From NCBI GenBank assembly GCA_963706285.1, contig CAVPLU010000004.1, positions 256,001 to 320,000 of the forward strand: a DNA stretch of 64,000 bases, written 5' to 3'. Below are positions 8,332 through 58,236 of the stretch, one piece after another. The notes beneath the pieces are model-generated. The model saw only the letters and a program-made list of their open reading frames with translations. It was not told the origin of the DNA and searched no databases. Within the stretch, counting starts at the first letter, position 1; each line of letters opens with the position of its first letter. Source of the DNA: Candidatus Bathyarchaeota archaeon (lineage in GTDB: Archaea; Thermoproteota; Bathyarchaeia; 40CM-2-53-6). The position numbers and the translations under genes were made by a program.

Positions 8332-8370
8332 CGACATCGTGGTCGGGGTAGTCTTGGCCCGGGGCTCGAT

Positions 8371-8535
8371 AGCCCGGTGGGGGAGCAGTAGGTTGCTCCG
8401 CCGAATGTAGTGGACAAAGGAAACCGTATTCCGTCTAGGCATAGCGGGCTTTGGTTCTCGCTCAACGAGAAGAAACCCGCCGACGGGAGTTCGAATGGTT
8501 CGTCAGAGAACCCGAACATCTCCCCCGGGCTACCA
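8371..8535 (+). tRNA. tRNA-Gln(UUG) with four BHB introns (8381-8405, 8418-8438, 8455-8474, 8496-8518) and encoded CCA
   Basis: Removing the four inserts gives a 76-nt cloverleaf AGCCCGG TG GTGT AGTGGACAA GCAT A GCGGG CTTTGGA CCCGC CGAC GGGAG TTCGAAT CTCCC CCGGGCT A CCA, with the archaeal Gln A1-U72 pair. Each junction forms a 4-bp helix flanked by 3-nt bulges. Confidence 0.93.
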
Positions 8536-57730: not shown

Positions 57731-57893
57731 TGGCGCCGCCGGAAGGATTCGAACCTCTAGTCGCGCCCGCGCGCTTCGACCAACGGGTCGCTGCCATGTG
57801 GCTAACAGCTTCAGCCTCAATCTTCTCGATTGAGTCCGCTGCTCTGCCACTGAGCTATCGTCTATGATCAAAGGATTGATCGTAAACGGCGGC
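57731..57893 (-). tRNA. tRNA-Asn(GUU) with four BHB introns (57885-57857, 57835-57810, 57802-57789, 57775-57757) and encoded CCA
   Basis: Removing the inserts gives a 75-nt cloverleaf GCCGCCG TA GCTC AGTGGCA GAGC A GCGGG CTGTTAA CCCGT TGGTC GAAGG TTCGAAT CCTTC CGGCGGC G CCA; BHB geometry at each junction. Confidence 0.92.
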
Positions 57894-57932
57894 TCTATTC
57901 GGCGGCACCGATTTCACGGAGCCTCAAGCCGC

Positions 57933-57949
57933 TTATTTAAGAGTTCATC
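57933..57949 (-). promoter_or_regulatory. BRE/TATA promoter of tRNA-Asn
   Basis: GATGAACTC-TTAAATAA on the minus strand, about 23 nt upstream of the inferred leader start (~57909). Confidence 0.6.
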
Positions 57950-58236
57950 GTCGACCGAATCCAGACCAAACTCATCAAAAACCGAATTGGGTGACATTCC
58001 GTTCTACCGTAGATCCAAAGAGCTCACGCTCGAGCCGAAGTGGTTGTTGGATAAGGACGGTTGCAGACCTATGATCTTGATTTCACAGATCAGCGATGAA
58101 TTGCTCGACTTCCTAATGGCGAGAGATCGACTAGCCTAACCCTCAATGCAATCATTCTTAACTGCGCTCAAGTCGGAAGAGTTCGCTTCATTACTCAATG
58201 CGAAAGCTCCTGGACTGAGACCGGGAGACTATTCTG

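Follow-up and report, generated by a model that had tools for sequence, protein, structure and literature searches.

The element described here has its nearest known counterparts in split and permuted tRNAs, whose flanks are complementary. In the split tRNAs of Nanoarchaeum equitans and the tri-split tRNAs of Caldivirga, the flanks pair, build the BHB motif for the archaeal splicing endonuclease, and hold the pieces together until ligation (PMC4090602; PMC4033280). The leader and trailer of permuted tRNAs, found in Cyanidioschyzon merolae and Thermofilum pendens, pair to form a BHB for the splicing machinery (PMC4090602), and in the available text of both articles leaders are mentioned only for these split and permuted forms (PMC4090602; PMC4033280). 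The tRNAs of Thermoproteales and Asgard archaea contain multiple short non-canonical introns with strict or relaxed BHB motifs, and most of their genes are interrupted (bioRxiv 10.64898/2026.10.13.758758). The word "leader" has no occurrence in the main text of this preprint, which treats its few acceptor-stem cases in summary form in a supplementary note, and the way in which a pre-tRNA refolds so that an acceptor-adjacent intron presents a BHB is addressed neither in that main text nor in the available text of the two articles (bioRxiv 10.64898/2026.10.13.758758; PMC4090602; PMC4033280).

The genome considered here, a Candidatus Bathyarchaeota assembly of 2.13 Mb with 51% GC and 21 contigs (GCA_963706285.1), resembles those of Thermoproteales and Asgard archaea in that its tRNAs carry multiple short non-canonical BHB introns. 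No helix of a tRNA is more stable than the acceptor stem, which hides bases that the BHB of an adjacent intron needs. In the tRNA-Asn(GTT) gene of this genome, as in split tRNAs, flanking sequence that is not part of the tRNA, namely the leader, is predicted to pair and help build the BHB. The split tRNAs, as far as the available text describes them, consist of two transcripts with mutually complementary flanks unrelated to the tRNA, whereas tRNA-Asn is one contiguous gene with one promoter and a single transcript, and its leader carries a copy of a mature strand that is complementary to the mature 3' acceptor strand and not to the trailer. The BHB of permuted tRNAs, as described in the same text, removes the flanks and circularises the RNA, whereas here the leader would survive the BHB cut and need later removal. 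Pre-rRNA leaders are known to pair transiently with mature rRNA to guide its folding and are then removed; they share with the present case the temporary alternative helix with a mature segment, but belong to another RNA and another enzyme system. To our knowledge, no leader is on record that copies a mature strand and thereby drives it off its pairing partner. Leader bases in outer helices may already have been noted in the 2003 survey by Marck and Grosjean, which reportedly treats the BHB motifs of 18 archaea. Full-text searches of the main texts of openly accessible papers turned up nothing that describes an acceptor-strand copy in a leader. The reading preferred here, with a probability of roughly 60%, is that the leader copy is a functional, selected cis-element that serves as a stand-in acceptor strand and aids splicing near the acceptor stem.

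The tRNA-Asn gene lies on the minus strand of the window, by which the whole stretch of 64,000 nucleotides analysed is meant. In unspliced form it gave no tRNA call by ARAGORN under default settings (0 in the whole window) and no Rfam tRNA match at the locus. Four introns of 29, 26, 14, and 19 nt with BHB boundaries were located in it by a BHB boundary scan, and after their in-silico removal ARAGORN calls a 75-nt tRNA-Asn(GTT) at 57893..57731 (-) (Table 1); Arg(CCG) and Cys(GCA), of 78 and 76 nt, were also called only after splicing. The original prediction held that the leader contains an exact duplicate of tRNA nt 1-7 able to form 10 bp with the 3' end of the gene, and the sequence confirms it: nt 1-7 are repeated without a difference in the 16-nt leader directly ahead of the gene, and GGTGCCGCCG can pair over 10 positions, one of them G-U, with CGGCGGCGCC from the 3' end, which reads CGGCGGC-G-CCA (57741..57731, 163 nt past G1). 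Pairing of the leader with G73-C74-C75 is not general, being confined to the own genus and two genomes from a single further family. The encoded CCA of tRNA-Asn is conserved, while the trailer diverges, and its TATA box CTTAAATA is unchanged in 10 of 10 same-genus orthologues. The T-stem intron is missing from three of these 10 orthologues, which indicates that it was gained or lost recently.

Table 1. Positions in the window of the parts of the tRNA-Asn(GTT) gene and of the leader copy ahead of the initiator-type tRNA-Met gene.
Feature	Position	Strand	Remarks
TATA box CTTAAATA	57934..57941	-	Best promoter-motif site, score 9.5; 27 nt ahead of the leader copy
Putative 5' leader, GGT-GCCGCCG-AATAGA	57894..57909	-	Start placed by TATA spacing
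Leader copy of nt 1-7, GCCGCCG; proposed stand-in strand	57900..57906	-	Predicted paired with the 3' strand, P = 0.99
Spacer AATAGA	57894..57899	-	G-2 and A-1 lengthen the BHB outer helix
Exon 1, nt 1-8, GCCGCCG-T	57886..57893	-	Invariant among orthologues
Intron 1 at 8/9, 29 nt	57857..57885	-	Relaxed BHB; central helix 3/4, outer helix 4 bp
Exon 2, nt 9 to ~30	57836..57856	-	D arm and 5' side of the anticodon stem
Intron 2 at ~30/31, 26 nt	57810..57835	-	Strict BHB; central helix 4/4, inner helix 7 bp
Exon 3	57803..57809	-	Final base of the 5' side of the anticodon stem, then CT-GTT-A
Intron 3 at canonical 37/38, 14 nt	57789..57802	-	Read from the sequence; confirmed by the spliced product
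Exon 4, nt 38 to ~50	57776..57788	-	From the spliced-product call
Intron 4 in the T stem, 19 nt	57757..57775	-	Strict BHB; central helix 4/4, inner helix 4 bp, outer helix 3 bp
Exon 5	57731..57756	-	Remaining T arm, CGGCGGC (57741..57735), G73, encoded CCA
Leader copy GGCCCGG of initiator-type tRNA-Met (gene 8371-8535, intron 10/11)	8356..8362	+	

A BHB was taken to consist of a 4-bp helix between two 3-nt bulges, with further helices at its flanks and cuts behind the second base of the bulge, and the 8/9 site of tRNA-Asn has this architecture in relaxed form. Its central helix joins nt 3-6 to GACG near the 3' end of the intron by three pairs out of four plus a C5.A mismatch, its bulges are G7-U8-U and A-U-A9, and its outer helix of 4 bp sets leader G-2 and A-1 together with G1 and C2 against G10-C13. 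These are, to the base, the helices that had been proposed for the site beforehand. For the 37/38 intron of the same gene, a complete outer helix is possible only once intron 2 is gone.

Folding with RNAfold agreed with the expectation that the leader shifts the 3' strand to the copy and that truncation restores the acceptor stem. With the leader present, pairing of the copy with the 3' strand reached P >= 0.99 in four of the five genes with valid scores (Asn, Cys, Ser, and the gene at C4:348195), the true acceptor stem being at 0.00; when the leader was cut back to -2, the true acceptor rose to P 0.80-1.00 in those four, and the BHB central helix stood at 0.00. The values for a sixth gene, C3:165727, which had been given an incorrect 3' end, are left out. 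The fifth gene, Arg, folds ambiguously because a GGGC repeat permits a shifted register. With the leader, the central helix was predicted at P 0.99 for Ser and 0.81 for C4:348195; it was not predicted by RNAfold for Asn, Cys, and Arg (P 0.00-0.01), where a register-shifted hairpin is preferred. In the minimum-energy fold of Asn, the outer helix is present and such a hairpin replaces the relaxed BHB. A control with shuffled copies was erratic, because GC-rich 10-mers retain pairing with the 3' end even when shuffled, and leader truncation was relied on.

The spacing of promoters places the probable transcript start just upstream of the copy. The distance from the end of the TATA box to G1 has a median of 26 nt in 31 ordinary genes, with clear boxes at 20-30 nt and one at 43; in the four copy-bearing genes with a clear box, the distance from the end of the box to the copy is 27, 27, 28, and, in the initiator gene, 25 nt. 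The orthologues, read by eye, have comparable TATA-to-copy spacing. The automatic TATA search was weak or wrong at many genes, and only high-scoring sites were used; the conserved TATA box of the initiator gene, TTTTATAG, was missed by this search and was read by eye. The TATA-to-copy distance equals the ordinary distance from TATA to G1, and transcription would therefore start a few bases upstream of the copy, which for tRNA-Asn points to a position near 57909. Contigs from four public RNA runs, one of which contributed nothing at the locus, are uninformative on starts: one metatranscriptome contig over 57727-57823 is unspliced and runs on into the flank of a relative, another, from a doubtful "RNA" run, covers 57876-57951 and passes the TATA box upstream as DNA would, and no joints, spliced forms, or transcript starts or ends were seen in such contigs at the locus.

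The relation between the copy and the position of the intron was assessed in a census of the tRNA genes of this genome, assembled from a T-arm-anchored finder, a CCA-anchored finder, and Infernal hits and scored by coordinates. The census has 42 rows, two of which belong to a duplicated contig, and is incomplete and blind to genes with introns inside nt 1-7. Each gene was scored by the highest identity that any 7-mer of its 40-nt leader has with its own nt 1-7; this score was 7/7 in six genes, 6/7 in three, and at most 5/7 in 33; an exact 7-mer is expected by chance within 40 nt upstream of ~0.2% of genes (34 positions / 4^7). An intron between nt 7 and 12 is present in nine of the 42 genes, and eight of the nine carry a copy of their own acceptor strand (five exact, three at 6/7), against one of the 33 whose first ~15 bases are uninterrupted, so that the genome-wide specificity anticipated for such duplicates was found at a threshold of 6/7. 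The nine introns lie at 8/9 in Asn, Cys, Ser-TGA, and the tRNA with acceptor GCCGAGG, which is the sole one without a copy, at 9/10 in Arg-CCG and C4:348195, at 7/8 in C3:165727, at 10/11 in the initiator-type Met (window 8371-8535, plus strand), and at ~11 in C13:120597. Together with the predicted folding, this specificity supports the proposal that the leader may take the 3' acceptor strand and free nt 1-8. A genome-wide scan for a repeat, its complement, and NCCA returned 14 hits, five of them tRNA genes and nine others. Nine tRNA genes with different acceptors each match their own copy at 6/7 or better, which implies that the copy originated repeatedly and independently. The one copy among the 33 belongs to the gene at C3:155195-155350 (-), whose acceptor is GCGGCCG and whose only intron lies in the D loop; it is six nt long (GCGGCC) and adjoins G1. 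This copy is kept in three of three close orthologues and is absent from a paralogue and a distant orthologue, both with the D-loop intron, and from four intron-less orthologues.

The window contains a second instance in the initiator-type tRNA-Met gene, which has A1-U72 and several introns, one of them in the T loop. Its leader copy pairs with the 3' strand at seven of seven positions by way of G.U72, and its TATA box ends 25 nt upstream. The paralogue at C12:127304-127468 has the T-loop intron in common with it and has neither the 10/11 intron nor the copy.

Conservation was followed in 41 genomes of the same order, this one included, and all 37 with a match to the tRNA-Asn gene were inspected. 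The 8/9 intron, 19-33 nt long, and the leader copy are present in all 37; the copy is exact in 34 and differs at base 7 alone in three, so that its bases 1-6 are invariant across at least 10 families. The spacer of 5-15 nt, in contrast, has unrelated sequences, and the intron loops have diverged as well. The central helix of the 8/9 BHB is complete (4/4, GGCG) in 14 orthologues and relaxed (3/4, GACG, with the C.A mismatch) in 23. An outer helix of at least 3 bp, which needs leader position -1, can be formed in 37/37, and 31 allow at least 4 bp; every orthologue has at position -1 a purine that could pair with U12, and position -2 is G in 31/37. Because the outer helix needs the -1 base, the leader would still be attached when the 8/9 intron is cut. 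When 185,579 species genomes were scanned for the pattern of copy, gap, GCCGCCGT, gap, and D arm, 93 stretches matched, and among the 80 matches listed most are labelled Bathyarchaeota or Bathyarchaeia; the other matches listed are mostly bacterial, many from high-GC groups, and were taken as chance.

Orthologues that differ in the presence of the intron were compared in six tRNA families. All 37 Asn genes have the 8/9 intron (34 copies exact, three at 6/7, none absent), and no intron-less orthologue was found. For Cys (8/9), the copy is exact in all 19 intron-bearing genes and present in 0/7 without the intron. Arg-CCG (9/10) has seven exact copies and three differing at base 7, with none lacking, against 0/3 in intron-less genes. 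The initiator Met (10/11) has one exact copy, AGCCCGG, and seven at 6/7, all GGCCCGG with G.U opposite U72, and none lacking, against 0/4 without the intron, among them the paralogue in this genome. In Ser-TGA (8/9), the intron is accompanied by 11 exact copies, one at 6/7, and seven absences, against 0/8 without it; the seven copy-less genomes (L197, L198, L199, L204, L205, L207, and L208) come from three genera. A search for substitute pairing in these copy-less Ser-TGA leaders found nothing convincing. The tRNA with acceptor GCCGAGG (8/9) has, with the intron, one exact copy, one at 6/7, and six absences, all six from the own genus with this genome included, and without the intron a copy in four of five genes (two exact, two at 6/7). 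A single genus contains four states of this tRNA: the intron with a copy, only an exact copy, only a 6/7 copy, and neither of the two. The totals are 73 exact, 15 at 6/7, and 13 without a copy among 101 intron-bearing gene-genome pairs, and two, two, and 23, respectively, among 27 intron-less pairs; such pairs come from related genomes and are not independent samples, and no P value was calculated across them. The weight lies in the agreement of six gene families and in the repeated origin of the copy. The exceptions show that the leader copy is not indispensable but would help, and that it can outlive the intron. The copy-less Ser-TGA leaders contain a conserved motif, GACCTGAA-(N)-GCGGG, in place of the copy.

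The substitutions within the copies follow the pairing. In intron-bearing genes, one class lies at base 7, where the stand-in helix has its inner end: T or C for G in three Asn genes, A for G in three Arg genes, A for G in GGGGCCA, C for A in Ser, and A for G in the copy GCCGAG+A. The remaining changes there are G.U-compatible, namely A1 to G opposite U72 in the initiator Met and C6 to T opposite G67, and the sole internal change that does not pair (GCCCAGG) precedes an intron-less gene. If copy bases 1-6 pair with nt 67-72, changes should be restricted to base 7 or to G.U, as seen here; a duplicate in neutral decay would not have such a pattern. Co-variation of acceptor and copy within one gene family was not seen, and the case for pairing therefore rests on identity, on the G.U-compatible changes, and on the comparison across families.

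A short tandem duplication of the gene start is the likely mutational source of the copy, because some copies have a spacer of 0 or overlap the gene. The copy could also be regarded as a by-product of mutation, either of a tandem duplication of the GC-rich gene start or of the event that brought the intron, tolerated and without a role. Copies that abut the gene or overlap it by one base do look like fresh tandem duplications, copies also precede intron-less genes, some 8/9 introns manage without one, and the upstream copy lies at the distance from the TATA box that is ordinary for a gene start. Such an origin does not account, however, for the invariance of Asn copy bases 1-6 in 37 genomes of at least 10 families against a diverged intron and neighbouring spacer, for the limitation of changes in intron-bearing genes to base 7 or G.U-compatible ones, for the occurrence of the lone internal non-pairing change in a gene without the intron, or for the ratio of eight of nine against one of 33 within one genome, which makes a roleless duplicate quite unlikely. 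The ordinary spacing from the TATA box to the upstream copy, and the ability of the 3' strand to pair with either copy, could also mean that the gene model is wrong, the upstream copy being the true mature 5' strand and the downstream one intronic. This is hardly credible: base 7 of the upstream copy varies (T or C in three Asn genes, A in three Arg genes) and would break pair 7:66, whereas the downstream copy is invariant, and no conserved U8 follows the upstream copy. No BHB was found that would excise the spacer with the downstream copy, a cut that used the upstream copy would give A8 or G8, and the orthologues in L005 and L010 show that the 3' splice site lies ahead of A9, which makes the downstream copy the source of U8.

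The same pairing evidence that favours an aid to splicing would also apply to a role in quality control or processing order, in which the copy, by pairing with the 3' strand, masks the acceptor end and CCA of the unspliced pre-tRNA from RNase P, the synthetase, and nucleases. Within the own genus the pairing does reach G73-C74-C75 (10 bp), the CCA is encoded in the gene, and the outer helix uses leader bases, so early cleavage by RNase P would damage the BHB. Yet the extension across CCA is not conserved beyond the genus, and tRNAs of the same genome with introns elsewhere, in the D loop, anticodon, or T arm, would need such protection too, while 32 of 33 are without a copy; masking as the main role is considered unlikely.

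If the copy acts as a stand-in acceptor strand in splicing, as preferred here, its sequence identity, its specificity for introns from 7/8 to ~11/12, its conservation, and its predicted pairing fit a simple series of steps. Transcription would begin a few bases upstream of the copy and include the leader, and in the cell the copy would pair with the 3' acceptor strand (nt 66/67-72) into a stand-in acceptor stem. The freed nt 1-8 could then form the BHB for the splicing endonuclease jointly with one or two bases from the end of the leader, nt 10-13, and the intron's 3' portion. From cleavage to ligation, pairing of the copy with the 3' strand would tether the short 5' exon, which consists of the leader and 8 nt, to the tRNA body, so that the copy might aid cleavage or ligation. 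After splicing, the true strand would replace the copy, and the leader would be removed, presumably by RNase P. For tRNA-Asn spliced in silico, with its 10-bp pairing, the copy-paired form is still the favoured one, at -50.3 against -37.8 kcal/mol (a difference of ~12) with P(true acceptor) = 0.00, which speaks against this series of steps; these are values that are nearest-neighbour energies only, free of tertiary contacts and proteins. A bolder formulation, whose chances are put slightly short of even, treats these pre-tRNAs as programmed strand-exchange devices in which the stand-in strand licenses introns in the otherwise forbidden stretch beside the acceptor stem, from 7/8 to 11/12, and tethers the 8-nt exon, with splicing, strand swap, and RNase P cleavage in that order, at least nine independent origins in one lineage, and decay of the copy after intron loss.

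Should the stand-in role hold, a conserved, gene-specific strand would be a simple built-in answer to the refolding that a BHB next to the acceptor stem demands. It would also be direct evidence that splicing precedes 5' maturation for acceptor-proximal introns, and a natural case in which strand displacement within one molecule decides the sequence of RNA processing steps. Regarding the processing machinery, an archaeal RNase P RNA is encoded at C4:378576-378861 (score 183.7 bits, cut-off 84), and there are two EndA paralogues with PF01974 above the cut-off, at C12:149004-149243 (-) and C6:75200-75433 (-), in frames of 200 and 181 aa. The two paralogues suggest a two-subunit enzyme, probably of the kind known for a broad substrate range.

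Programs that search for tRNA genes overlook almost all of those here, and the leader copy would offer them a new signal. Nearly all tRNA genes found in this genome are interrupted, which is why standard finders fail on it; Infernal places 16 above the cut-off genome-wide, and ARAGORN with the intron option mislabels many genes. The CCA end is encoded in most of the tRNA genes. Two of them, at C4:222230 and C4:230678, recur with near-identical flanks on the short contig C20, which fits the figure of 7.5% contamination or strain duplication given for the assembly.
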